DNA from: an uncultured virus (IMG/VR IMGVR_UViG_3300031992_000037) | Lineage: Duplodnaviria; Heunggongvirae; Uroviricota; Caudoviricetes | IMG/VR virus record: IMGVR_UViG_3300031992_000037 | Length of the DNA stretch: 55,361 nucleotides | Strand: one strand, 5' to 3' | Shown: piece by piece, positions 4,437-39,910 of the stretch | Layout of the letters: each line of letters starts with the position of its first letter | How positions within the stretch are numbered: the stretch's first letter is position 1 | Notes under the pieces: generated by a model | Told to the model about the DNA's origin: nothing | Databases searched by the model: none | Seen by the model: the letters and a program-made list of their open reading frames with translations, nothing else | Translations under genes and position numbers: made by a program

Positions 4437-4455
4437 CTGATAATCAATTAATTAG

Positions 4456-4528
4456 TTGCCCTGAATGGATTCGAACCATTTCCCCAGCTTTTAGAGAGCC
4501 ATCAACTAACCATTATTATGACAGGGCA
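4456..4528 (-). tRNA. Amber suppressor tRNA (anticodon CUA), Gln-like acceptor stem
   Basis: TGCCCTG-TC-ATAATAATGGTTAGTTGA-TGGCT-CT[CTA]AA-AGCTG-GGGA-AATGG-TTCGAAT-CCATT-CAGGGCA-A. Anticodon at 4492-4494; U1-A72 pair as in tRNA-Gln. Confidence 0.9.
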
Positions 4529-9588: not shown

Positions 9589-11808
9589 TTAGTATTTTTT
9601 ATCGAGAACTTCATCATTCTATTTACCATCATCTAAATAAACCTAAGCAAGTTCTATTTTATTCCGGTTTTTGATTAGTTCCAACTCCTATTCCTTTAAC
9701 TCTTTCTTAGCTTTGACCTCGTACCATTTGATATTCTGGTTCATCTAATTATCTTGCTATTCAATATTCAACTTACGCTCATTTAGCTGTGCAAGTTTCT
9801 TTGTAGATTGCTCTAATCTTGATTGCATCTACTACATATTTTGTTGTGCCTCCTATAATTGTTGAGCAAGTTGTTGTATCTAATCGTGTTCAAGTTTTTT
9901 CTCTTTTATAGATTTTCTAAGAGCATCGTACATTTCCGTAAGAGATTTAGATTGCATTACTAAAGCTACTATTTCAACATCTACCTAATCACTCTATGCT
10001 AATTGAATAGCCAATTGCCTGATTGACTCCTATTCTTTTATTAAATCAGCACTACCAGAAACATGAACATCATAATCAGTTTGGGAGTAATGTTCCGGTA
10101 AAAGTGTAAAAATCTGTTTTCTATTACCTAGAATAATCTAACCTGAAAGTCCATTTTTAAAAACTCTTCTGGCAACGTCTAAACTATCTGTTAACATTTC
10201 GGATACTAATGTATCCATAGCTTGATAATACTATTTGGTTATAATAAAAGATTGCTACATACCAACCTCAACATTAGCTACAGCATCTCTAGCTTGAATA
10301 CCTCCTAATCGCTCTCTAAATACTCCGGTAATAGAACTAGCAATCTCTTCAGTCATCTATATAGCCAATTGAATGGCCTATAGACTACCTAACTAAACAG
10401 TATCATCGTATCCATTAAAATAAGTATTTGCCATCTAGCCTTCCTAAGAAGAATCGAATATAGATAATCCAGATTTTCTATAGGCCAAATATTTAGCAAG
10501 TCTCTCCTCAACATCGTCACCTAAAACTGTCGGTAAAAATGATAGATCAACATGAGCTCCACGAGGTCCGGATAGTGCAATAGTGTTATCTTTATAGAAA
10601 AGAAGTAAATCGTAAGAATCTTGTAAATAAGCGGTTGCAAGCATTAAGGAGTATGGGGACCCATGCCCATCAGTATAATATATACCATTTATATTTAATC
10701 TAACCTCATTTGGTGCATCCATATCTCTGACGACATGTTTATCCTCTCCCCGTAATATATACATATCAGAGCCTATTCTTACAACCTCATATCTATTACC
10801 TTTAATTTTGCCGGACTTATCTTTAACCCAATCAATCCACTCCACTTCATATACTGGAATTAAATCCCACTTCTAATTATAATCACCACCTTCAGGATGC
10901 ACCCCAACACCATCAACTACACCAGGATTATGATAATCACCACATCTAGCACCTAAAGATTTAACCAAAATAAAGTTGCTATGATAGTCTCCTCTATCAA
11001 TGTATTGATCATCAATTCTATCTATATCGTCCTGGGACATTTCCTCACCATATTTAATAAGGATCTCTTCTTTAGTCATCCATTTACGAACAACGGCACG
11101 ATATCCATTTTTTATATATTTACTTTTTGGATCTTTATCAACAAAAACATTAATTGGATCCTCAATTTCTATTTTAAAATTGGTTCCTGCAGAAGTTGGA
11201 ATAACTTTATAATAGGCCTCCCCAGAAATGAACAAATCTAATAAAATTTGTTGAAGTTTATTTTTAAAATCTATCTTTCTGGACTACATTATGTATTGAA
11301 CAATATCCTATCCAGCTATTTCATAATTAGATATAAAGTTTAAATCCACAGATTCCTTTATATCATCTAATTGCTGTTGAATAGTTTGATCAACTATTTT
11401 CTGATCCTGCTGTTTGGGTCCAGATAATGCCTAATATATAGAATTTTCTAAAAATTTAGAAAGCCAGTCATGAATCTCTTTAGATAACATTAACTATTTC
11501 TCTCTAAAAATTTTAGACAAAGTCCCCTAATCTTTACAAGATATTTTAGGTCTAATTTCTGTTGTCAAGTATTCACCTACAAGTGCATCTATATGTTTTC
11601 TAATTAGCGGAGTGAATGACATTGAAGTAGGATTTCCAACTCCCTCATTTTTTTCGAGGTTTTCGTATTGGTAATGATCTCGTTTTCCCTAATAATAATT
11701 ATAAGCTTTATATAGATGTTCTTTCTCCTTAACAAGATCCCCAATACAATAATCGGCCCACTCTATTAAATAATCATCAGATCCTTTCTTAAACTAAGAC
11801 TTCCACAT
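9589..11808 (-). CDS. Portal protein (crAss-like), about 739 aa with TAG=Gln
   Basis: Joins track ORFs 10873..11235 and 10444..10845. Motifs KAYNYY(Q)GKRD, FTPLIRKHIDALVGEY and SITGVFRERLGGIQARDAVANV, plus a Gln-rich C-terminal coil; downstream of terminase. Confidence 0.85.
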
Positions 11809-11810
11809 AA

Positions 11811-12080
11811 TTATAAATTACTATCATTTGCATGTAGAATAATCTACATATGTTGAGTTAAGTCTAATCGACTTTTTTTTAGTTGTTTTCTTATAAACTG
11901 CAAAAACTCTTCTTCGGTTTTACATTGTGTTGCATATATAATCCCACCATATTGTGGTCCATGAACATACAAAGTAGCCTGATACCAATCACCATCATGA
12001 GTTGCTTTTATCGGAACTTCACTTATACAATTATAAACCTCTTCAATTATGTCAGTTATTTTTTTCTCAAGTCCATCCAT
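11811..12080 (-). CDS. Hypothetical protein between terminase and portal (89 aa)
   Basis: Likely start MDGLEKK overlapping the TerL end; read through TAG at 11844 to TAA at 11811. Confidence 0.65.
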
Positions 12081-14322
12081 TTTTTCTAACATTTTGCTCT
12101 TGTGTTGAAATAACTCCAAACACCTTCTAACCATATTCATTCTTATAATACCCAATAGTTCTGAGAATTTTTTGAGTAACTTCCTATTTAGGCCTCTTAC
12201 CTAACATATCTTCATCGGCTAATAAAGCCATAGCAAATGCAGCGGTAAGGTCAAATTTACCTTTATTTTCTGGGGTATATCTAATTAATTCATCTATAAC
12301 TTCTAGAAAATCTATCTAGTCACAATAATCATAAACATATTGTTGGATTAACTCTATTTGGTGTTCAATAATTCCAGCTGTAGCTGGACATCCATATTGA
12401 TTTGCATTCTATGTTTTAGAAGTAAGGGTTGCTCTAGGTCTTTTTAAGAAATATCCAGTCTATCCATACCTTCTAAAGTGTGTGAATATACTCATACGGG
12501 TTGCCTCAAATAATACTTTAGCATTATAAAACTCAGCTAATTTTAAAGCTGTATCATGGGCCATACTTGGATCATCAGGTCGTTCTTTATATATAGCAAC
12601 AATTTTTGGTGGTTTAAGTCCATACTATCGCCTGAAAACAATTAAGCCATATTTTGATAAGTCAGTTTGACCTGTACTAGTTTCTTTACCACTATCAAAG
12701 CAGTCTGCCCCTATTACATATAAATTAATAGGAACTGAACCGTCTTCTAATTTTATTGGTGGCTCAATCATATATATTGGCCCGTTATTAGACAATTCCA
12801 TTTTAGGAACTGCACTTCTATCAACTCCGCCCAACTCTTTACTATATGGCCAAATAAGTTTAATGCCTTTTGGTTTTTCAACCATACCCTATTCAATATA
12901 GGTTTTCTATTCTGCCAGCTTTTCAGTATTGAAAATATTAGAACCCTCTAATATAAAGGCATCTTCTGGAGTAAAACAATACTCTGCCTTATCTTTTAAT
13001 AAAGCCTCAGGATCTTCGATAGTACTCCACTGCTATTCATAATATCTTTTAGCCGCCTCCTCGTCAACAACTCCTCGGTCATCAAATTTACCAAACCATA
13101 AAGTATAAGCAGGGATAAAAAATCCTGTGAATGCTTCCTAACCGTCTCTTGAATAGAAATGTCTGTAAGGCAATACTTGGTAAGCTTCTGGATTATAAAA
13201 AATACTTTTTAATCCTGAAAGGGCAGGGCCCGAATCACCACCAGTTCCACCGGTACTTCTCTAACCAACTCTGTATCCTAAAATATCGACAAGAGGCCTT
13301 GATTGAATATAAGTATCTAAAAGCATGGGATCGGATCCACACTCCTCAAAAATTAAATTATATACACGAGCTCCACGAAGTTTTCTTGGCTTATCGTGTA
13401 CACGTCCCTCAATTACGGACATCCAACCAGTCTCATTCTTATCTTTATCTACTTTAGATGCTCGTTTATAAAACTAAGTATCAGCCTTCATTCTAACCCT
13501 TTTAAAAGCACCTTCTGTGCAGGTGTTTAAAAAGTCTAATTCCTGCCAAACCTTATCTAAGGTATTTGTTACATAATCGACATTAAAAGCAGTAACCATA
13601 TTATGGGAAGCCCTATGAAAGGAATAACCACAACATACATCTGATGCAGACATCTAAGAAAATCCAACACCACGAGATTTAAAGACATTTACATCCTTTC
13701 CCAATTTTCTGGCCAATGCTTTATAGTGAAAATACTCATACTATTTAGCAAAGAATCTTGGAAAATCCTCTTCCTGAGATTCTTGTTTATTTTCGGCCAA
13801 TACTGACGGCAGTCTGAAATAATTTATAAAGAAATAATTTTCACCTGTTAAAGTATATCTACCTATAGTAATCCCATCTTTACATCTATTAAATTCTTCT
13901 ATCCAATGTTCTCTGTGGGCAAAAGTTCCGGGGATTAATTGTGTATATCTACCAGTTCTCCTATAAGTATCGGCAGCAACTGTAAATAGTTTTGGATCAA
14001 AATCTAAACCTCTATTTGCAGTAATTGGTCTATATCCAGTTAATTCGTATGATAATTCAGGATCGAAATATTCAATCGGATCTCCAATTTTAACATCCCA
14101 CCCATCCTCATCATAAGATTTCTCTTCAACAACTGGTTTTGGTTCAGGTTCCTTATAATTAAGCATAGCTTGATACTCCTAATCATTTTTCTCTTTTTTA
14201 GTTGGAGTTTTTCTTTTCTTACTATACTTTTCATCAAGTTCCTATGCTTTAGCTATTAATTCCTCTCGTTTTTTCTCTCTCCAATATTTTTTTGATAGTT
14301 TTTCTAATTCCTTTTCATCCAT
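12067..14322 (-). CDS. terL: Terminase large subunit, about 751 aa with TAG=Gln
   Basis: One frame joins track ORFs 13741..14166 and 12625..12885. Motifs TGENYFFINY, LKSRGVGFS (Walker A-like), LIFEECGS (Walker B), GGTGGD, YVIGADCFD (RNase H-like) and KFDLTAAF. Confidence 0.92.
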
Positions 14323-14324
14323 AA

Positions 14325-14903
14325 TCAATCAAATAATCCTGGAGTTGTATCACCACGCAAACCAGTAGCTTCGTCAAGTTCTTCTTTATATTGGACCTCT
14401 AAATCTTTTAAGGCAGCTAATGCTTTAGAAAGATTTTGCATTTCTGTGAGAGTATCTTTAATTTTATATAAAGGCCTACCTTCACTATCAGTTAAAGAAT
14501 AATCAATATTATCTATGAAGACCTTCATCTTATGAATATTATTATTATAAGATTCAATCATTTGTCCTATAATAGATGAACTATTTTGAAGTTCTTGATA
14601 CTTTCTACAAGCGGCTCTAAATACTTCATCATTATATTCGTCTTCAGTTAATCCAGAAGCTTCCATAGCATATTTATGGCGGTTTGCCGGGGTGTCCTTA
14701 CTTCCAGGAGCACCCCAGTCTATTGCCATATAAATATATACTAATTCTCTAAAACCTCTCAGTTTCTTTTCGCCTGTAGGGTCTTCCTCACAGATATTTC
14801 TTTCATTAGTCCATAAATCAGCAAATTCCTTAACAAGGAATATTTCTGGTTCGTTTACGATGATTTTATTTTTAGTATTATCGTAAGCAAAAAATTTTAT
14901 CAT
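14325..14903 (-). CDS. Conserved protein immediately upstream of TerL (possible terminase small subunit)
   Basis: 192-aa TAG-free track ORF abutting terL; function inferred from position only. Confidence 0.6.
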   Translation of the reverse strand: MIKFFAYDNTKNKIIVNEPEIFLVKEFADLWTNERNICEEDPTGEKKLRGFRELVYIYMAIDWGAPGSKDTPANRHKYAMEASGLTEDEYNDEVFRAACRKYQELQNSSSIIGQMIESYNNNIHKMKVFIDNIDYSLTDSEGRPLYKIKDTLTEMQNLSKALAALKDLEVQYKEELDEATGLRGDTTPGLFD

Positions 14904-26268: not shown

Positions 26269-26947
26269 AACTAAAAATTTTTTACAAAATTAAAAATTTT
26301 TTTAAAAAAATAAAAGTCAAAAATAGGCCCCCCGGGGTTTTTAAATGAGGGGGTGTTTAGGTGCAGAAGTTGGGTGTAGATTGGAAGTTTTTGTGAGTTG
26401 TGGGAGCGGGAGGACACCTAGGCAGCATGGCCCCCCGCAAAGCGTATGGGAAAACAATACCCAGCAGGCCTCAGGCCCTGCCGGGTATAATTTTCCCATA
26501 GACACAATTTCGCGGAGGAGCGTGATCGCCTTTCCTGGAAATGGCTGTGTTGCACCAATAGCAGCATGGCTCCGCGGCCTCACGAAATTGTGTCGACATC
26601 CCGACAGGTGACCTGGCGTGCTAACCGACTGGGATGTAAAACAGCACTGCATCTTCGGATGTACCAGGACGGGGCGGTTGGAGACAACCAGACGAAACCG
26701 TGACGGAAGTAGTCTAGTAGAATCATGCAATCGGAGATGGTATCAAAGATTAAGCACTAATTCACAATAGATGTGGAAAGTCTGAATCCCTCTTTAAAGT
26801 GTAAGGAGATGACCGTTGATAAAATGCTTTCAACAAGGTAAGACAAGTACTGCTATAATGAATTCAAACGGGCAATCTTAACTGCCCCAAAGCTCTCTGA
26901 GTTCTGGAATCTTAGTAGGAGAGTTATAATTAATAAAGATACTTGGT

Positions 26948-27358
26948 ATGAAGACATATCAAGAAAATGTTAAAGCATTAATTAGTAAACTTAATGCCTC
27001 ATTTGGCTTTAAGTTTTACTTAGAAGAGATGGCCAATTTTGGCCGTCCCTTCACAATTCTCCGTGAGGGGACTGGATACTGTTTAGATATACAGTATTCA
27101 GAATCTGGGTTTGGAACAACCGACCTGGGCCTTTTTGGGCCCTCGCCAAAGGTTCCAAAACCAACAGACCAATTGCCGGCCATTGCGATAGTGACCGAAA
27201 CGTGGGACGATTGGTACCCACAAATTAAAGACACCAATGTGGAATTCTGTCAAAGAATTCCAATACCGTTTCCGCAATCCCACACCAAAGAGGTGTGGCA
27301 TACGTGCGGCTGTGCGCATACAATACACACCCACACCAGGGTAATTGTGGAGTGCTAG
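26948..27358 (+). CDS. Hypothetical early protein
   Basis: Track ORF; ends in TAG. Confidence 0.5.
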   Translation: MKTYQENVKALISKLNASFGFKFYLEEMANFGRPFTILREGTGYCLDIQYSESGFGTTDLGLFGPSPKVPKPTDQLPAIAIVTETWDDWYPQIKDTNVEFCQRIPIPFPQSHTKEVWHTCGCAHTIHTHTRVIVEC

Positions 27359-27690
27359 CCCTAAGGCCCATCTATGGAGCAGGACACAGTTCGATTCTGT
27401 GTATGGGCCCTATGCCTATGAAACAAGATGGAGTCCCTGCTGGATGCATGCGATTTAACGTCGCCTTGTATCAAGCAAGACTCGAATCCTTGGAGAGTTT
27501 CTTAGGCTCTAATCCGTATGCCGGGGAATACGAACTGGCCTTATGCTGGGGAGTATCTCTGTCCGCGGCAATAGCCACCATGCATAAAATAATGGTTGGG
27601 ATTAGAGCCGGGATACTTCAATCAAAATTCCCAATAAATGGGAAGAAGATTGGAGTAAAAGGAAACTATTATGTCGTATATAAGGCATAA
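27295..27690 (+). CDS. Hypothetical early protein (start uncertain)
   Basis: Track ORF followed by a hairpin. Confidence 0.45.
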   Translation: MAYVRLCAYNTHPHQGNCGVLALRPIYGAGHSSILCMGPMPMKQDGVPAGCMRFNVALYQARLESLESFLGSNPYAGEYELALCWGVSLSAAIATMHKIMVGIRAGILQSKFPINGKKIGVKGNYYVVYKA

Positions 27691-27809
27691 CTCCTGCAGA
27701 GGGATGCGTATTCTGCATTACTCATAACGCATAACGATAGATCTTAGCTATTACAAAACACCTCCTTGTAATAGCCGGACAAGTATAGGAGGTATAAATT
27801 CGACAGACT

Positions 27810-28070
27810 ATGAATATGTATGTCGACATGGCTGTAGAGCCTCACGGCCCTACGTCTGAGAATGACATCGGGATTGCCATTCTACAGGCGTTAGAATCAA
27901 GATTGGAGAGTCCTAATGCTTTCTAGGCATCTCCAATCAAGTACTGTCTGTACGCAAATTCTGATGAGGACATAGCCTATTTGAGATCTTGGATTTGTAG
28001 TAATCTTAGATCTACAAATGGCAAATCTGTCCTATCAGAATTTGACTACGGTCAGTAGTAGGGCTCCTGA
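27810..28070 (+). CDS. Possible hypothetical protein with internal TAG (27924)
   Basis: MNMYVDMAVEPHGPTSENDIGIAILQALESRLESPNAF*ASPIKYCLYANSDED...; open apart from TAG codons. Confidence 0.35.
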
Positions 28071-28519
28071 GTAAGACTCCGAGTGTAATGAGCTCGGGAA
28101 CAGAAATCATCCCTGTATTGATATTGGTTTATCATACAGGCCTAAAGTTGGCCGTACATGGACACCACTATGTGTAGGGCCTAAATTAAAGAGCATCATC
28201 TCTCTAAACTGTCTAGCGGCTTGACCACATCCTTTCGGTACTGGCGGTGAAAATCCAAACCGGGCTAGCAAGCAGCTCATCTTGTAAAACCGAGCCACCT
28301 AAGCATTCATATATGTGAGCTTTCGGCAGCAGCATGTATGAAAGACGGGCATCCTCAATATGATGTAAAACTATTGACATCAGATAAGATGTAAAAATCC
28401 CCACTACCGGGGTGACATGGTACTCGGATTGTTAATTGTCTGGCCGAGCGGACTAGAGCAGTTCTTGACCCACGGGCTGTCGACGATCCACATTTTATGT
28501 GGATATTTTGGGTATTCAT

Positions 28520-29188
28520 ATGGCAACAAAGAATATTATTGCCGAAGTAATTAATGCGAGCAAAGATGCTCGCCAATTTAGTGAGGAAGAGCTTCAAAAG
28601 AAGCTTGCCTCTCTAAATGGGCGAGATGGCTCGCCCCTCAAAGCCGAAGAGGAGCTTTGGCTCCTCCCGGTGCTCCTTCCAAGCTGGAAGTGGAAGGGCA
28701 TTGAGGGTGAATACCCTGCACTTCCAGCCATCAACCAGAACGGACACCTGGTCGTAATAGGTCTTGGAAGCCTCGCTGGAGGTTCTGGGTACCTAGAGGA
28801 TCCAGGCGAAGGAACCTGGGAAATTTCGGAGACCGGATGGTGGTATCTAAAACCGTCTGAGGTCCCCGAAGGTGGTAGCAGGGCCACCAAAGTCTGGGGG
28901 TTGTCGAGGAGTCTTAAAGACTCATTCAACGACAACCTCGAGCTCAGAGGGGTCGTATCCCTCAAAGTAGAGGAGGACGGCTATTGTTACGGGCCGAGGC
29001 TCGTAAAGGCCGGGAGTCCCGACGAGGGACGAGAGAGGGCAAGCCTGCGCTTTAAGCGCAACACCCATTTCTGGGAAGGCAAGGCCCAGCCAATAACCGC
29101 CATTCCGAGCAAACTTAAAAAGTTTGCAGAGAAGCTGGGTTTACCGATGGAATGGCTAAAACCATTCCCAGCTGACTTCTACTGCTGA
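28520..29188 (+). CDS. Hypothetical protein (MATKN family, 222 aa)
   Basis: Track ORF with ATG at 28520; strong terminator downstream. Confidence 0.8.
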   Translation: MATKNIIAEVINASKDARQFSEEELQKKLASLNGRDGSPLKAEEELWLLPVLLPSWKWKGIEGEYPALPAINQNGHLVVIGLGSLAGGSGYLEDPGEGTWEISETGWWYLKPSEVPEGGSRATKVWGLSRSLKDSFNDNLELRGVVSLKVEEDGYCYGPRLVKAGSPDEGRERASLRFKRNTHFWEGKAQPITAIPSKLKKFAEKLGLPMEWLKPFPADFYC

Positions 29189-29230
29189 AATAAAGGATCC
29201 TAGAGAAATCTAGGATCCTTTATTTTTTTT
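29188..29230 (+). terminator. Intrinsic terminator
   Basis: aaataaaggatcctaga-gaaa-tctaggatcctttattt followed by a T run. Confidence 0.85.
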
Positions 29231-29309
29231 GGCGACTCATCATGGCCCCAGGTACTTTATAGCGCATAAAGCGTATTATTATTTTTTTTTAATTTAATAT
29301 TTTTATTGT

Positions 29310-29978
29310 ATGGCAACGAAAAATTCGTATCTGGGTGAAAAATTCAACCCAGCAGATGAGAGCGATCGTGCTCTCAAAGACATGAAGGCACTCGAATCAG
29401 TTAATTTTGAGCGCCAAGCTCCATTAACTGAAGGTGCAACTTATATCCTCCTACCGCAGGAAAATACAGCGGCTGTATATACTATCCCAGGAGTTGGTGA
29501 TAGAGTTTCTCGCCGATTCTGGGCAGTTGAGCTTAACCGAAAGAATGAGCCTGTATCTATACGTAGTATAGGCTATTCATCGATAGCCAAAATGGGATAT
29601 CAAGAAAAGACTTCAGCTCAACCTGCTGCACCAGAGGTTCCTGCATATCAGGATAAAGAAGGAAAATGGCACCCGAAACGTGGGTTAAGTTATGTGTTCT
29701 CATGCGAGGACCACAACTTCATTAAGGCAAACCCAGAGACAATGCTTATGGAGATAAAGACTCCTACGGCATTGAAAGTGATGCGTAGAGCCGAAGTGTG
29801 GGTTGCATCCTTTAAGGATCAAGCATTAGTAGTAAAGGACGGGATGATTGTTCCTGAAGTAGATGACCGATTCGTGTTCTTCAAAACCCTCGTAGCCCCA
29901 ACTGAAGATATAGTTGAGGCTTGCAAAAAGGTCCTTGAAAATGAAGACTCAATTCAAGACTGCCTTTACCTGTTGTAA
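29310..29978 (+). CDS. Hypothetical protein (MATKN family, 222 aa)
   Basis: Track ORF with an AT-rich initiation region. Confidence 0.85.
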   Translation: MATKNSYLGEKFNPADESDRALKDMKALESVNFERQAPLTEGATYILLPQENTAAVYTIPGVGDRVSRRFWAVELNRKNEPVSIRSIGYSSIAKMGYQEKTSAQPAAPEVPAYQDKEGKWHPKRGLSYVFSCEDHNFIKANPETMLMEIKTPTALKVMRRAEVWVASFKDQALVVKDGMIVPEVDDRFVFFKTLVAPTEDIVEACKKVLENEDSIQDCLYLL

Positions 29979-31363: not shown

Positions 31364-31663
31364 ATGAAAAAAGTATATAACGTTGTTCATCACTATGATG
31401 TTGATGGCGGAATTGGATATGCCATCAGTCAAAAAGAAGTTCTATTTATAACTTCTGTCAAAAAAGTGGCAGAAGAATTTATAGATAAATATTCCCATGA
31501 TCATGTCTATGATGTTCCATATTCAGAACTTCATATGGGATTATTAAAAGTGGAAGAATTCAATGTAATAGAATCTTGGGAGGATATCCCCAAAAATATA
31601 ATTGAATGGGGAGATGAAAACAAAAGTGAGACAGACAACTATAATCCGGATGACTATCATTAA
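31364..31663 (+). CDS. Hypothetical protein
   Basis: Track ORF with A-rich initiation region. Confidence 0.8.
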   Translation: MKKVYNVVHHYDVDGGIGYAISQKEVLFITSVKKVAEEFIDKYSHDHVYDVPYSELHMGLLKVEEFNVIESWEDIPKNIIEWGDENKSETDNYNPDDYH

Positions 31664-31721
31664 GATTATGAGTTTTCTATCTCAGACTGGTTAGATTGGT
31701 AATTATTAAAATATATAAATT

Positions 31722-31940
31722 ATGAAGAAGATATTGAATTATATACTGTTGTACGGCACAATAGTGTACAGCTTGCTATTTTTAATGGCGGCAGAGTCAT
31801 TAATCGAAAGCCTTCCCGCAATAGCCTGTATTATGATTTTAATACAGGCAACATTAATATTCTTATGTATAGGAATATTTGGAGATGGAAAGTGGCGTGA
31901 ATATGTACCTAAATGGATAAGTAGGATGGATGAAGATTAA
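31722..31940 (+). CDS. Small two-TM membrane protein
   Basis: Two hydrophobic helices. Confidence 0.75.
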   Translation: MKKILNYILLYGTIVYSLLFLMAAESLIESLPAIACIMILIQATLIFLCIGIFGDGKWREYVPKWISRMDED

Positions 31941-32142
31941 TTAAATCATGATATATCCTTATATAATGAAACCCTTTTTGACTAACCATTTATGGAGGAA
32001 TAAATGGAAGCAGGTAAGAAGACATAATAGAAATTGACCAATTTTCATTATCCTGAGGATCTGGGTACACACAGTATCCTGAAAGTCTTCAATTTGTTCC
32101 TAAGAGAGTGATATCTGTTAGGGGCACTAACCCTGCAAAGGG

Positions 32143-32216
32143 ATTTGTCGTATTAATTTGTGTTTTTCCTGTCGAGAGAGTCTTAATCCTTATTTGGTTG
32201 GAAGATGGTTTAGAAG
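32143..32216 (-). CRISPR. Solitary CRISPR repeat (32180-32216) with adjacent 37-nt spacer-like unit (32143-32179)
   Basis: GTCTTAATCCTTATTTGGTTGGAAGATGGTTTAGAAG. The reverse complement ends AAGGATTAAGAC, like Bacteroidota type III repeats. Identical copy at 33689. Confidence 0.75.
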
Positions 32217-32440
32217 ACATGCGCGTGCGGTTATATAAGTAGTGTGTCTTCCGAGTAGTGTGTCTTGCGAACGACTCGGATGAACGACTACAAATTAACG
32301 TTTTTTTAGTAACTTGTTTGGGCATGTTAAGTCTTGGTGTTGATTTCATGTTCTCGAAGTGTCCGTTTGAGGTATATTCGGACGATTTTTATATTACTAT
32401 TTCAAAAGTGGAGGCACCACGATAAAAACTGTTTATTGTT

Positions 32441-32722
32441 ATGTATTTATTGAACGCATTTAGTTTGCAGATGGTGGAAACACCTGTATCTGTGAAATTT
32501 TCTGAAATAGAAGTGAACGAATTGCCCAAAGAATTAACATCAGCCATCGGGCATGCGGATACTGCTGCTGTTCTTGGTGTTGAATGCAATCGCATAAATG
32601 TTAAATTAGCAAAAGGCGATACCGCATACGTTGCCCAACTGATGGGCGGACGACTCCCCGAAGGGAGCACAACTCTCCCCGAAGGATTCCACTTCAAGTT
32701 TATTAAGGTGGACGTTGAATAA
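32441..32722 (+). CDS. acrIII-1: AcrIII-1 / DUF1874 (STIV B116-like) cA4 ring nuclease
   Basis: MYLLNAFSLQM...SAIGHADTA...NRINVKL..GD...VAQ..GGRLPEG shows the GH, NR and RxxE motifs of the family. Confidence 0.85.
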   Translation: MYLLNAFSLQMVETPVSVKFSEIEVNELPKELTSAIGHADTAAVLGVECNRINVKLAKGDTAYVAQLMGGRLPEGSTTLPEGFHFKFIKVDVE

Positions 32723-32838
32723 ATCCCTTATTCAAAATAATCAATACGTCAAAGAGCTAATAAATAGGATTTTTGACTAAAATGACAAATCATAAATCCT
32801 TAATTAAAAATTACTTATATTTATAAACCTACAATCAA

Positions 32839-33264
32839 ATGCCATTTAATGAGATGTGGGAAAGTTTAGTGAATATGTATAAGAGTACTGTAATGTTTCT
32901 CCGCTCAAATCGGAGAAATCGTCAAACAAAAATGACGAGGGGCGAATATTGTCCAGGAGAGCTTAAAAGTTCTCAGGCAATTCGCCAAATACTTTTTGAT
33001 TTGAGAGGTAAGTTAATTCACTTTCCCAAGGATTCTTGGGTGTACTACATCTTAAGAGACCTTAAGATGGAAGAGTTCCGAAGAGGTGAAATAACCTACT
33101 GGAGATGTTGCCCGTACTTTGAGAGGGTGTACATTAACTTCAATGATGAAGCTAATTGGAACGAACTCCAAAGTACAGGTAAACTCTCCTGGGCTCGGGA
33201 TGAGTATATATCATGGCTAAAAGCTGTGATGCCGCTCCGTTCTGAGATTATCCAGGTAGAGTGA
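32839..33264 (+). CDS. Orphan protein (141 aa) inside the repeat-flanked cassette
   Basis: Track ORF with A-rich initiation region. Confidence 0.7.
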   Translation: MPFNEMWESLVNMYKSTVMFLRSNRRNRQTKMTRGEYCPGELKSSQAIRQILFDLRGKLIHFPKDSWVYYILRDLKMEEFRRGEITYWRCCPYFERVYINFNDEANWNELQSTGKLSWARDEYISWLKAVMPLRSEIIQVE

Positions 33265-33688
33265 TCTCCATCGGAGTTCCCACTACAGCAATGTGAATGG
33301 CAAGAGAGTGGGTGAAAGAGAGTTGCCCGCTGGTCACGTAAGACCACAGTCGAAGGTTACACGGAATCTTAAAGATGTAACCGAGTATTTAAAGTTGGGG
33401 ACAAGTGATTGGTTTTGCTTGTACTTTCTAAATGGGTGTACGCCATTCCGTCGGGAATAGTATTCTACTACCATTCCTTGTAAACGACCCGACGCTAAAT
33501 AATAAACGTTCGACAACGGAAGGACTTGTGCTATCAGGCTGAACGGGCGGAAATATAGCAATCGCATGGGTTAGGTGCGTCCGTGCGGTTGCTTTTTTGT
33601 TATGCACCAAAACGATTTGAACGGATGAAGAGTCTGAAAATTTGGCTTGTCAATGTATCTAATTGGCAAGTTGTAGAACATTGCGGCG

Positions 33689-33762
33689 GTCTTAATCCTT
33701 ATTTGGTTGGAAGATGGTTTAGAAGATTTGTCGTATTAATTTGTGTTTTACCTGTCGAGAGA
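33689..33762 (-). CRISPR. Second solitary CRISPR repeat (33689-33725) followed by a copy of the 37-nt spacer-like unit (33726-33762)
   Basis: Repeat identical to 32180-32216; unit matches 32143-32179 at 36/37. Confidence 0.75.
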
Positions 33763-34034
33763 CAGTAAGATCCTGTTGTGAAACAGTGTCTCTGGCATTT
33801 TAGATGTTAATAATATACGGGTATAGGAGTTTGAATACTCCCATACCTCCTAAAGTAATAAAGTTGTTAAAACTTTGCTGAGGCCGAATATACTCGCTTA
33901 GGCTTTGTTACTTGGGTATAGAGATTTGGTTATCTCTATACCTTCTAATTTAATTGAAGAATTTATTTGTTGTTTATTGGGTTGTTTTGTTGAAGTTTGT
34001 CATGAGGATTACTTAATTGGGGTTAAGTAATCAG

Positions 34035-34063
34035 AACTCTCCCCTGAAATATGGGGAGAGTTT
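34035..34063. terminator. Terminator hairpin downstream of the rep-like gene
   Basis: aactctcccc-tgaaatat-ggggagagtt. Confidence 0.65.
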
Positions 34064-34815
34064 TATAAAACTATATCTTGAAAATTAACTTTATTTTCTT
34101 GTATATGTTTTACCAGTGCATTAATTGTTTTAGATTGATGTTCTAACTTCTCTTGTAATTGTTTATATTTAAGAGATAAATCATCATGTTCTGATTGTAG
34201 AGATTCAATTTTAGAATCTGTTTCTAAGAATTTAAGAGCAATAGTATTGGCGAATTCATTAAAATTATATATTCGCTGGTAATTACATTCTAAATCAGTA
34301 TGCCCATTATCTGGGATTTTTACCAATATATTTTTATCTTCTAAGGATTTCTCATATTTTTGTAAAGTTCTGGGATCTATATTGAGATAATTTGCTAATT
34401 GTTTATTACTATATGTAATAATTCCATTTTGTGCAACTGGATCTTTAAACATAAATTGTTGACTCATTACAATCATCGACTTATCTCTAGAGGATAAATT
34501 AGAATCATTTAGAAAATCAAAAGAAAATATTTCAAATTTATTATAATCATTAAAGGTATATATAGAAGATGTGCCAGGTCTCTTAGTTATATTAATATAT
34601 CCTGCATTTTCTAACCTTTTAAGTCCATTTAAAATAGTTTTTCTATCTAATTCGGAATCTTTTACAATAGTGGAAATTTGTGGATATGCCTGTTTTGTTT
34701 CTAAATTCATATATTTTTTAATACAGGCATAGATATAGGGATCATTTAGTGTTAATCCTTGCTTTTTTAAATCCATATTTGGGATTTGTACGTGCTGTTT
34801 TGATAATTCATTCAT
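34063..34815 (-). CDS. Replication initiator-like protein (tandem winged-HTH, C-terminal coiled coil)
   Basis: AYPQISTIVKDSELDRKTILNGLKRLENAGYI and YSNKQLANYLNIDPRTLQKYEKSLEDKNIL HTHs; iterons upstream. Confidence 0.75.
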   Translation of the reverse strand: MNELSKQHVQIPNMDLKKQGLTLNDPYIYACIKKYMNLETKQAYPQISTIVKDSELDRKTILNGLKRLENAGYINITKRPGTSSIYTFNDYNKFEIFSFDFLNDSNLSSRDKSMIVMSQQFMFKDPVAQNGIITYSNKQLANYLNIDPRTLQKYEKSLEDKNILVKIPDNGHTDLECNYQRIYNFNEFANTIALKFLETDSKIESLQSEHDDLSLKYKQLQEKLEHQSKTINALVKHIQENKVNFQDIVL

Positions 34816-36538: not shown

Positions 36539-37513
36539 ATGAAAATATTAACAGAAAGAGATGTGAATAAGCATGGCTGGGGTATAGTATCGGTAATTAC
36601 ATCCGACATGCTAGAGAAATATGGGTATACACAAATTGGAGATTATGCTTTTTGGGGCGATGATCTTGAATCAATCATAATACCTAATAGTATAACAAAA
36701 ATTGGAATTGGCGCGTTCAGAAATTGTCCTAAACTGACTTCAGTAACAATCCCCAATAGTGTAACAATTATTGACTCTAGGGCTTTTTTAAATTGTAGTA
36801 ATTTAACCTCAATCAAGATTCCAAATAGTGTAACAGGTATTGGTATACATGCTTTTAATGGTTGTTCTAATTTAACTTCAATAGTAGTAGAAGCAGATAA
36901 TCCAAATTATGATAGTAGAAACAATTGCAATGCTATAATAGAGACTGCTACAAACACTCTTATCGCTGGTTGTAAAAATACAATTATTCCCAATAGTGTA
37001 ACAAATATTGGAAGTTTTGCCTTCTATAGCTGTGATGATTTGACATCTATAATAATTCCCGATAATGTAATTAGCATTGGAGATGATGCTTTCTGCAAAA
37101 CAGGTTTGAAATCCATATCTATTCCAAATAGTGTTACAAGCATTGGATATTGTGCTTTTAAGGATTGTAAAATTAACATACCTAAAAAATATGATAGTCT
37201 GGGTAGACTAATTGCATATAAAGGATTTGATTCTAAGATGCAATGTTATGATCATTTTCAATACATTGAAGGACATACTTATAAAACTTCTGAAGCTATA
37301 TTATGTGAATGCGGATTCCACGCTTGTACTAATCCCTTAGATATATTTTCTTATTATTTCGGAAGAATAAATAAAAATGTATATATACATGAGGTATATC
37401 TTGATGATGTAAGTACTGAAAAGGGTACGGATAGTAAGGTTGTATCTAAGAAAATAACTATTGGTCGAAGATTAACCATTGAAGACATAAACAATATAAT
37501 ACAAGAAAAATAA
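36539..37513 (+). CDS. BspA-type leucine-rich repeat (LRR_5) protein with C-terminal AYKGF...GFHAC domain, copy 1
   Basis: 23-aa IPNSVTxIGxxAFxxCxxLTSI repeats. Confidence 0.92.
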   Translation: MKILTERDVNKHGWGIVSVITSDMLEKYGYTQIGDYAFWGDDLESIIIPNSITKIGIGAFRNCPKLTSVTIPNSVTIIDSRAFLNCSNLTSIKIPNSVTGIGIHAFNGCSNLTSIVVEADNPNYDSRNNCNAIIETATNTLIAGCKNTIIPNSVTNIGSFAFYSCDDLTSIIIPDNVISIGDDAFCKTGLKSISIPNSVTSIGYCAFKDCKINIPKKYDSLGRLIAYKGFDSKMQCYDHFQYIEGHTYKTSEAILCECGFHACTNPLDIFSYYFGRINKNVYIHEVYLDDVSTEKGTDSKVVSKKITIGRRLTIEDINNIIQEK

Positions 37514-37560
37514 AAAAACATTTGTATAATTCAAAAACAAAGTAAAAAAAATAAACAAAC

Positions 37561-38409
37561 ATGAAAACATTAACACAAAATAGTGTAATTGAACACGGAT
37601 GGGATAAATTATCAGTTATAACGGCTGATATGATAGAAAAATATAGGTATACACAAATTGGGAAAAATGCTTTTAATCATTGCCATAGCCTTACCTCAAT
37701 TACTATACCTAATAGTGTAACAACCATTGGACTTTATGCTTTCTATGATTGCACTAATCTTACCTTAATAACCATTCCAAATAGTGTAACAAAAATTGGG
37801 GATTATGCTTTCTATAATTGCCGTAGTCTTACCTCAATAACAATACCAAATAGTGTAATAGCCATTGGGTGTTGGACTTTTTATAGATGTAATAATCTTA
37901 CCTCAATTACTATTCCAAATAGTGTAACATACATTGGAAATGGTGCTTTCTATCATTGCAGTAATCTTACCTCTATAATCATACCTAATAGTGTAACAAC
38001 CATTGAAGATGATGCTTTTGCTGATTGTGGAATAAACCTGCCTAAAAAATACGATAATCAAGGTAGGTTAATTGCATATAAGGGATTTGATAAACACATG
38101 CAATGTCGTGGTTTTCAATACATTGAGGGTGAAACCTACGAAACAGATAAAGCTAAGTTATGTGTATGTGGTTTTCATGCTTGTACAAATCCTCTTGACA
38201 TATTTAACTATTATGCTGGTGAAATAAATAATAAAATGTTTATTCACGAAGTGTATCTTGAAGATGTAAGTGGTGAGGAAAAAAATGATAGTAAAGTAGT
38301 TAGTAAGAAAATAACCATAGGTCGAAGATTAACAATTGAAGATATTAATAATATATTACAAGATGAAAGAGTTAACACGAGACAATGTAACCAAACATGG
38401 ATGGAATGA
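37561..38409 (+). CDS. BspA-type LRR protein, copy 2
   Basis: Same architecture as copy 1. Confidence 0.92.
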
Positions 38410-39184
38410 ACTATCGGTTATTACAGCCGATATGATAAAGGAATATGGCTATACTTCTATTGGAGAATACGCTTTCTATAATTGTAAAAATCTAGTTTCA
38501 ATAACCTTACCAAATAGTATAACGAATATTAGAAGAAGTGCTTTTTTTAATTGTTATAAATTAGCCTTTATAACAATTCCTAATAGTGTAATCAGTATTG
38601 GAAATTATGCTTTCACATTTTGTCACAGCTTGACTTCGGTTATTATTCCTAATAGCGTAATAAATATTGGAAATAATGCATTCACTGGTTGTAATAGTCT
38701 AACCTCAGTCACAATTGGTAATGGTACAACAGGCATTGGAGATTGTACTTTTGCTTTTTGCAATAATCTTATTTCTATTATCATTCCTAATAGTATAAAA
38801 ATTATTGGATTTCGTGCTTTTGGAGGTTGTAAAATAAAGTTGCCTAAAAAATATGATGCCCAAGGTAGATTAATTGCTTACAAAGGATTTAATAAAAACA
38901 TGCAGTGTCGTAATTTTCAATATGCGGAAGGACAAACTTATGAGACATACAAGGCGGAATTGTGTAAATGTGGCTTCCATGCCTGTACTAATCCTCTTGA
39001 TGTATTTACTTATTATGCAGGTGAAATAGGTAAAGATATGTTTATCCATGAAGTATATCTTGAAGAAGTGAATGATGAAGAAGATAGTGATAGCAAGATA
39101 GTTGCTAATAAAATAACTATTGGTAAACGTTTAACAATCAAAGATATTAATAAAATTATACAAAATGAAAATATTAACAGATGA
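38363..39184 (+). CDS. BspA-type LRR protein, copy 3
   Basis: ATG at 38363 (MKELTRD) aligns with the paralog starts. Confidence 0.92.
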
Positions 39185-39910
39185 TGAGGTAATTAAAAAT
39201 GAATGGAATAAAAAGTCCATTATCACCTCCCATATGATAGAAAAATATGGATACACACAAATTGGAGATCATGCTTTTTTATTTGCCACAATCTTACCTC
39301 TATAACTCTTCCAGATAATATAACTAGTATTGAAGCTTATGCTTTCTATGGTTGTAACAGGCTGACTTCGGTCACAATTGGCAATAGAGTAACAAGTATT
39401 GGAAAGTGTGCATTCGGAAATTGTAAAAAGCTTGCATCTATAAATATACCAAATAGTATAATAAGTATTGGAGATTATGCTTTCCATGATTGCTATGGGC
39501 TTACTTCGATTGTTATATCAAATAATGTAACAAATATTGGATGTGGTGCGTTTAGAACAGGTAAATTAATAATTCCTTTAAAAAAATATGATAATCTAGG
39601 CAGGTTAATTGCTTATAAAGGTTTTCGTAGAGATATGACTTGTCTTGGTTTTCAATACGAAGAGGGAAAGACCTTCGAAACAAATAGAGCAAAGTTATGC
39701 GAGTGTGGATTTCATGCTTGTATCAACCCATTGGATGTTTTCAATTACTATTATGGGAAAATAAATGAAGATATAGTTATTCATGAAGTATATCTTGAGG
39801 GCGTATCAGAAGATTTAAGCCCATTTTTATATGATAGTAAGGTCGTTGCAAAGAAAATCACTATTGGCAAAAGATTGTCTATAGAAGACATTAATAAAAT
39901 TATACAATAA
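39165..39910 (+). pseudogene. BspA-type LRR protein, copy 4, frameshifted at a T run (about 39275-39284)
   Basis: MKILTDDEV...GDHAF, then continues one base out of frame as an open LRR plus C-terminal domain (track ORF 39635..39910). Confidence 0.85.

Follow-up and report, generated by a model that had tools for sequence, protein, structure and literature searches.

Does a pair of CRISPR repeats in a phage genome encode small RNAs, or does it mark the place where other DNA came in? The question is raised by a locus in which two repeats enclose a ring nuclease gene. The locus is probably the scar of a spacer-addressed insertion, which delivered the ring nuclease into the early region of a rumen crAss-like phage.

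Phage setting and layout of the locus

The window (the whole stretch of 55,361 nucleotides analysed here) consists of two arms. The left arm (positions 1-26268, minus strand) contains long frames only if TAG is read as glutamine. It has 25 ORFs of at least 120 aa under table 15, a tRNA with the CTA anticodon (4455-4528), and the portal (9589-11808) and terminase (12067-14328) genes. The right arm mostly needs no recoding. The best annotated relatives of the terminase belong to crAss-like phages (less than 30% identity), and the runs holding most of the stretch come from sheep gut. The locus lies approximately 6 kb into the plus-strand block past the strand switch near 26300, and thus it is likely to belong to the early region. 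At the strand switch, the block 26340-29978 stands out by its high GC content (0.46 against 0.33), its long non-coding stretches and its orphan ORFs. At 36539-39910 there are tandem paralogues with BspA-type leucine-rich repeats, the first of which also has DUF7666.

The order of elements, read from the window, is A(32143-32179)-R-X(1,472 bp)-R-A'(33726-33762), with the following features.

32131-32142, plus strand: small hairpin with a GCAA loop; native phage DNA that is not part of the duplication (the empty-site contig of run X5 matches 32128-32148)
32143-32179, plus strand: A, the left one of the two site copies, with T at nt 25; its 5' part is from the phage and its 3' part presumably from the spacer
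32180-32216, minus strand: R, left type III-family repeat; the crRNA sense is minus, and the plus strand gives the anti-tag behind A
32143-32187, minus strand: predicted crRNA-like unit, 8-nt tag and 37-nt guide antisense to A (pairing computed)
32217-33688, no strand assigned: X, insert between the repeats, 1,472 bp
32441-32722, plus strand: gene of an AcrIII-1/Crn2-family ring nuclease (PF08960; alignment to 2x4i and 2j6b)
32875-33264, plus strand: 129-aa ORF of a small family; the longest frame starts at 32839, and the N-terminus given here agrees with the relatives
33557-33600, plus strand: hairpin resembling an intrinsic terminator, 15 pairs and a T run, from a consensus scan only
33689-33725, minus strand: R, right repeat, identical in sequence to the left one
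33726-33762, plus strand: A', the right one of the two site copies; nt 25 is A, the letter also present in the empty-site relative
33763-33818, plus strand: native right flank, with the non-pairing CAGTAAGA and hairpins
34063-34815, minus strand: convergent replication-initiator-like HTH gene outside the insert (PF13730, phrog_8102), a possible source of minus-strand read-through

The two copies of the 37-nt repeat R are exact, and the two 37-nt copies of the site, A and A', differ only at nt 25 (T in the left copy, A in the right). The permuted duplications are 1,583 bp and 1,509 bp long. Approximately 5e-12 exact 37-nt repeats are expected by chance over the window, and elsewhere in the window there is nothing within 13 mismatches of R or A. 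The minus strand reads as the reverse complement of R, then the reverse complement of A, then CCCTTTGCAGGG (32131-32142). On the plus strand, the left A is followed by GTCTTAAT, identical to the anti-tag in 8/8 positions, and A' is followed by CAGTAAGA, with 2/8 anti-tag bases and one wobble. On recounting the window, the layout, the minus-strand order and the flanking letters were all as described in the initial annotation. The same annotation also pointed out the small hairpin. Since the hairpin is native phage sequence outside the duplicated unit and its GCAA loop reads on the plus strand, it is no evidence for a terminator of a crRNA. To the right of the locus, at 33819-33945, there are two related hairpin units 95 bp apart, and the relative from run X5 has just one.

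The layout was also found in run X1, an independent assembly (the run may be the source of this DNA). Its contigs cross flank-A-R, R-X-R and R-A'-flank at depths of 20.4, 21.3 and 19.9, respectively. A metagenome contig of 158,651 bp corresponds to the window and is identical to it over the 8,029 bases compared.

The repeat and the guide-like unit

R is a repeat of the host type, belonging to a type III family. A metagenome scan for R produced five loci. Two belong to the source contig, another two are overlapping arrays whose repeat is the same as R in 32/37 positions, and the fifth is array L044, in which 12 of 14 repeats are identical to R (37/37). The latter array comes after cas1, a gene for a BT4734-like primase-polymerase (which we take to be CAPP), cas2 and a TPR gene. 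The degenerate repeats of L044 are at its far end, and thus the transcribed strand is likely to be the reverse complement of R, with the 8-nt tag AUUAAGAC. The direction and the AUUAAGAC handle proposed earlier for the unit agree with this array layout, and related loci support both at the sequence level. The CAPP-like gene occurs in 14 of 251 genomes; all three genomes fetched from this set contain arrays of R's family, with 9-15 differences from R in 37 positions. Cas10 was observed in two of these three loci (in the L044 stretch it is not visible), Cas6b in one, Card1 CARF in two, and a CARF-deaminase in one. Such effectors use cA4. Cas6 of B. fragilis is reported to make an 8-nt handle as well (PMC10600005).

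Exact R and exact A had no matches in IMG/VR. With up to 3 mismatches over 29 bases, R was found in 2 of 401 genomes, each time as a single match. Two Bacteroidales genomes contain repeats resembling R in 32/37 (L037, 10001-10037) and 31/37 (L046, 1501-1537) positions; the former copy is solitary, with no cas gene among the scanned neighbours. The 40 host spacers of L040, L041 and L044 are 32-40 nt long, compared to 37 nt of the predicted guide, and do not match the window (12 mismatches in the best case). Judged by open frames, host spacers showed no strand bias in 8 arrays.

The predicted guide pairs with the whole of A and has one mismatch with A', at guide nt 13. It is antisense to the plus strand, that is, the strand of the flanking early genes. 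Activation of type III systems is described as governed by the tag/anti-tag rule (PMC11127173). The logic suggested in the initial annotation, a protected left copy and an activating right one, fits the flanks: the left A stands before a complete anti-tag, and the flank of A' is mostly non-pairing. Plus-strand RNA over the left A could still be cut by Cas7, without switching on Cas10.

A probable spacer-addressed insertion and other explanations

A is the phage's own native site, duplicated at both ends of the insert. One contig of run X5 joins 32148 to 33749 and contains neither R nor X; 13 other letters replace 17. This contig retains 33749-33818 with 2 differences and has the same allele as A', and further contigs of X5 match 34057-34800 closely. 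The sequence of this relative is different upstream of 32128 and in the middle of A. The empty site is represented by one contig of depth 6.65, with a short side of 21 nt and the likeness set at 85. Other searches for relatives gave little: blastn of 31600-34200 against 50,697 phage records had no match, the hairpin pattern across the A' junction had 0 matches in IMG/VR, none of the 7 candidates found via the HTH gene was confirmed, and the terminase led to one 9-kb fragment that stops short of the site.

On the plus strand, the joined empty site folds with a z of -3.3 (minus strand, -1.0), and the right allele gives the better fold (-3.3 against -2.3). These values do not demonstrate a long structured RNA at the joined site, as 6 of 40 background windows reach -3.29 or lower; another z value, -5.6, includes hand-chosen terminators. 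Readings of the flanks as a group I intron, RNase P or tmRNA were dropped after inspection by eye for the characteristic motifs. The four Rfam matches in the region (E from 0.1 to 9.8) are all far under the cut-off, and at the gathering score only five tRNAs were found.

The order A-R-X-R-A' is what one crossover between an R-A-R circle and its own protospacer leaves behind. The donor would be a 1,583-bp circle A-R-X-R, equivalent to a mini-array R-A-R once closed, that crossed over with the phage protospacer. From the geometry, a single crossover within nt 1-24 of A would have given the left copy the allele of the spacer and the right copy that of the phage. Less firmly, the circle may have been cut from a CRISPR array by recombination between repeats, so that X was an outsize spacer between two of them. 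The permuted duplication, the empty site in a relative and the exact repeat in L044 argue for the insertion; against it, a donor circle or array with A and X was not found among the 40 host spacers and the loci compared.

Recombination between spacers and protospacers has been reported (Varble 2019 and Watson 2018, via PMC8616872 and 10.1101/2020.10.09.333658). As here, the spacer is the homology joining CRISPR to phage DNA; however, the cases as cited concern transducing particles with host CRISPR loci, whereas the present case is a fixed phage insertion with a duplicated protospacer and an acr cargo. In prophage phiAP1.1 (10.1101/2020.10.09.333658) the repeats likewise serve as recombination sites, and repeat-spacer units leave in circular DNA, but here there is no integrase in X, and the DNA would have entered a phage protospacer instead of a host repeat. 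The viral mini-arrays of SPV1 and SPV2 are similar in having repeats identical to those of the host, and their spacer matches a related virus (PMC11656645, PMC6858448), whereas in our case the permuted A-R...R-A' is inside its own target and there is no intact R-spacer-R. Neither the permuted cargo-bearing layout A-R-X-R-A' nor a circular RNA made by Cas6 was found described in the literature covered, mostly outside subscription journals.

The insertion may have been retained as a defence against type III systems, since AcrIII-1 would destroy cA4. The left target would be masked, the anti-tag behind the left A keeping Cas10 off, and the terminator upstream of the unmasked A' could limit its transcription. 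Any crRNA from the left junction would then be a by-product or a secondary benefit. This suggests a type III escape in which a target becomes self by capturing a repeat behind it. For type III systems, tolerance of point mismatches is reported, and deletions were found in the escapers that have been described (PMC7515739). More generally, recombination at a targeting spacer would be a natural route, readable from sequence, by which phages gain CRISPR repeats, mini-arrays and acr genes. The same event could account for some solitary repeats of phages, and the signature A-R...R-A' is easily searched.

One can go further and consider arrays as address books for gene delivery between phages, although we think this unlikely: a repeat-bounded acr cassette would enter an array, exit with the neighbouring spacer and land in the phage which that spacer targets. 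The landing would both protect the phage and mask the target, and the cassette might spread by type III attack on siblings with the empty site. Cas6 cuts at both repeats would also free a 1,509-nt RNA, whose ends could be ligated into a circle.

RNA contigs provide a lead here, not a result. Cas6 cuts at both repeats would release a unit of exactly 1,509 nt. Runs X3 and X4 are from one sample, with unstranded contigs that may hold DNA. One contig of X4 joins 33688 back to 32180 through R, which is a 1,509-nt closure. The X3 contig that spans X has a length of 1,539 nt, as would a closed cycle of 1,509 nt with a 30-nt overlap; this reading of the overlap assumes an assembly word of 31 letters. 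The closure may equally come from a DNA circle, from DNA in the library or from clipping of tips in the assembly graph. The depth of X in the DNA run X1 (21.3 compared to 20.4 and 19.9) suggests no abundant free DNA circle. The listed contigs of X3 and X4 cover X and the upstream genes and leave A and A' without cover, which carries no evidential weight.

The initial annotation proposed that the left unit could be a weapon: a minus-strand transcript, processed by Cas6 and taken up by Csm/Cmr, would attack siblings that lack X, with AcrIII-1 as the antidote. Such a cassette would be a selfish homing or drive element. We regard the weapon as possible but doubtful. It is compatible with an origin by insertion, and the perfect repeat in the right direction, the guide of spacer length, the activating flank at A' and at the empty site, the ring nuclease within the insert and the existence of an empty sibling all speak for it. 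However, there is no downstream repeat to end the guide. The far sides of A and A' contain no repeat-like sequence, and a spacer with two flanking repeats would exist only in the proposed circle. Neither TAnnTTTG, which we take as the promoter motif, nor a sigma-70-like site was found on the minus strand of 32217-32445, by scans whose scope excludes phage promoters; read-through from the convergent HTH gene is a possible source of transcription.

The targets are problematic too. Siblings without the ring nuclease had been predicted, and a cassette-free relative does exist. On the other hand, its match is confined to about 13 of the 14 bases nearest the tag, it differs in the middle of A, where 17 letters are replaced by 13 others, and it would be a poor target of the guide; A matches its own genome, and the relative matches both ends of A only. 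Finally, another phage contig, L080, has the same layout without a leader, which fits a by-product. The notion of a purpose-built crRNA or Racr gene is not supported: the R-A unit is one junction of the insertion, and A is the duplicated site.

It is distinctly unlikely that both repeats are Racr RNAs, decoys that would sequester Cas6 and Csm/Cmr alongside a protein Acr. In PMC10651486, Racr candidates cluster within 1 kb of acr genes, and solitary repeats are intergenic, with no partner within 100 bp. The repeats of our locus are similarly intergenic, 1,509 bp apart and 224 bp from acrIII-1, and repeats of R's family are single in 11 of 14 viral loci. For the second small RNA, which the initial annotation considered possible from the right repeat, neither the window nor 83 loci contain a target (the best have 14 and 13 mismatches of 37), as would be the case for a decoy. 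However, here a cassette is enclosed by a pair of identical repeats, both of them adjoining a copy of the same 37-nt sequence, and a duplicated flank is not required for a Racr. Unlike a decoy, the left unit has a target in cis with which it pairs perfectly. Both repeats also run antisense to the AcrIII-1 operon and are not transcribed together with it, in contrast to RacrIC1 and AcrIC5, but this placement does not discriminate, as other solitary copies occur in both orientations.

Concerted integration by Cas1-Cas2 would have the same geometry: a 1,509-bp circle with one repeat is joined to a prespacer still on the phage genome, and R and A are duplicated together. The duplications indeed are of repeat and spacer length, and one RNA contig closes X via a single R at 1,509 nt. 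Such a reaction is nevertheless very improbable, since it predicts identical copies of A, whereas 1 position of 37 differs here and 2 of 36 differ in L080; moreover, three further spacers in L080 imply a pre-existing array, and X has no host-like leader (its leader-side DNA scores 25 against the leader of L044, and shuffled sequences score 28 +/- 5).

An assembly artefact combining a host array with a phage that shares a spacer would yield this layout, but it is hardly conceivable here, because the X1 contigs cross the junctions at even depth and the 158,651-bp contig is identical; all four junctions are inside equal-depth contigs of this independent assembly, no more than 25 contiguous bases are common to A and A', and the array repeat seen in run X1 differs from R.

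Cargo of the insert and repeats in other phages

The GC content of X is 0.41, compared to 0.30 in the neighbouring early genes. Its 93-aa protein matches PF08960 at 34.9 bits (the cut-off is 26) and thus by sequence belongs to AcrIII-1/DUF1874. In the alignment to 2x4i and 2j6b, its H38, R51 and R71 correspond to H47, R66 and R85. In this family His47 is described as catalytic, and R66 and R85 as binding cA4 (10.1101/778746). The protein resembles the AcrIII-1/Crn2 described there (DUF1874, PF08960) also in having equivalents of N8, S11, H47, T50, R66, Q81 and R85. The alignment supports the earlier assignment of the gene to AcrIII-1, its catalytic residues being kept, and X is predicted to carry an intact-looking cA4 ring nuclease. 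The viral AcrIII-1 of SIRV2, gp37, is reported to have no Acr action in native infection, for which late expression is blamed (10.1101/2023.01.10.523387).

The position of this gene between CRISPR repeats is unlike that in the 34 other viral AcrIII-1 loci fetched: none of the 34 has R nearby, and none has the non-coding DNA of X. Among 401 genomes a single one had AcrIII-1, and within the stretch read there were no cas genes next to it. Locus L066 (8498-8746, G218) has an N-terminally truncated AcrIII-1-like frame among housekeeping genes, and this genome also has a CAPP-like gene.

The 129-aa ORF has seven other proteins at E of 0.001 or less among 1.84 billion representatives; the family was aligned without one relative, a repetitive protein of 2,522 aa. 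It has no match in Pfam, PHROG or PDB, and its family has no usable Atlas match and none in the phage records or the 401 genomes. Both the family and the non-coding DNA of X are absent from all loci compared. The terminator-like hairpin of 15 pairs closes the plus-strand operon ahead of the right repeat.

A search with a more permissive form of the repeat gave 14 viral loci. In 11 of them the repeat was present once, one (L078) had unlike copies scattered along it, and two had identical repeats in tandem. One of the latter two, L080, is a 44.8-kb contig with a gene order that we judge to be crAss-like. It is unrelated to the window and has the order A-R-s1-R-s2-R-s3-R-A', where the 36-nt duplication has 2 differences and three ordinary spacers lie inside the permuted layout. 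A of L080 forms the first codons of a phage gene, and the repeat direction makes the crRNA antisense to the mRNA. Masking is not the general benefit, since the unmasked copy of L080 sits in a gene. A homologue of Crn4 lies 350 bp upstream (profile E 1e-4, TM 0.76 to 9r7b); the first single-sequence model of this protein had a pLDDT of 43, and the fold search with it was uninformative. At 2332-2675 (G402) the Crn4 homologue is followed directly by a partial type III repeat in the crRNA sense, which makes it a candidate Racr-plus-Acr pair.

In L070, one end of an array of 9 repeats lies midway in a DUF3127 gene (matching positions 38-85 of the 85 in the profile), and the other end of the array is cut by the contig end. 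Both contigs, L080 and L070, may be chimeric assemblies linked through a spacer common to array and phage. In the flank-duplication control there were 18 rows with at least two repeats, of which 5 ran off the locus. The duplication was observed in 5 rows, corresponding to 2/2 independent phage records in which the repeats are identical and the flanks on both sides can be seen, and in 0/8 cellular rows (15-18 mismatches of 30), where some first matches are not the true end of the array.

Four unlike units resembling type III repeats occur in the crRNA sense among small genes of L085 (7887-9135; G403, L078). Three of them stop just ahead of an ATG, and they may be Racrs or Cas6 processing sites in phage mRNA. 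The orientation of solitary repeats relative to genes is mixed. Single repeats at the 3' end of a gene, with the anti-tag side facing the gene, were observed in L069, L072 and L073/L074/L076/L079; these could be remnants of left junctions that mask a type III target.
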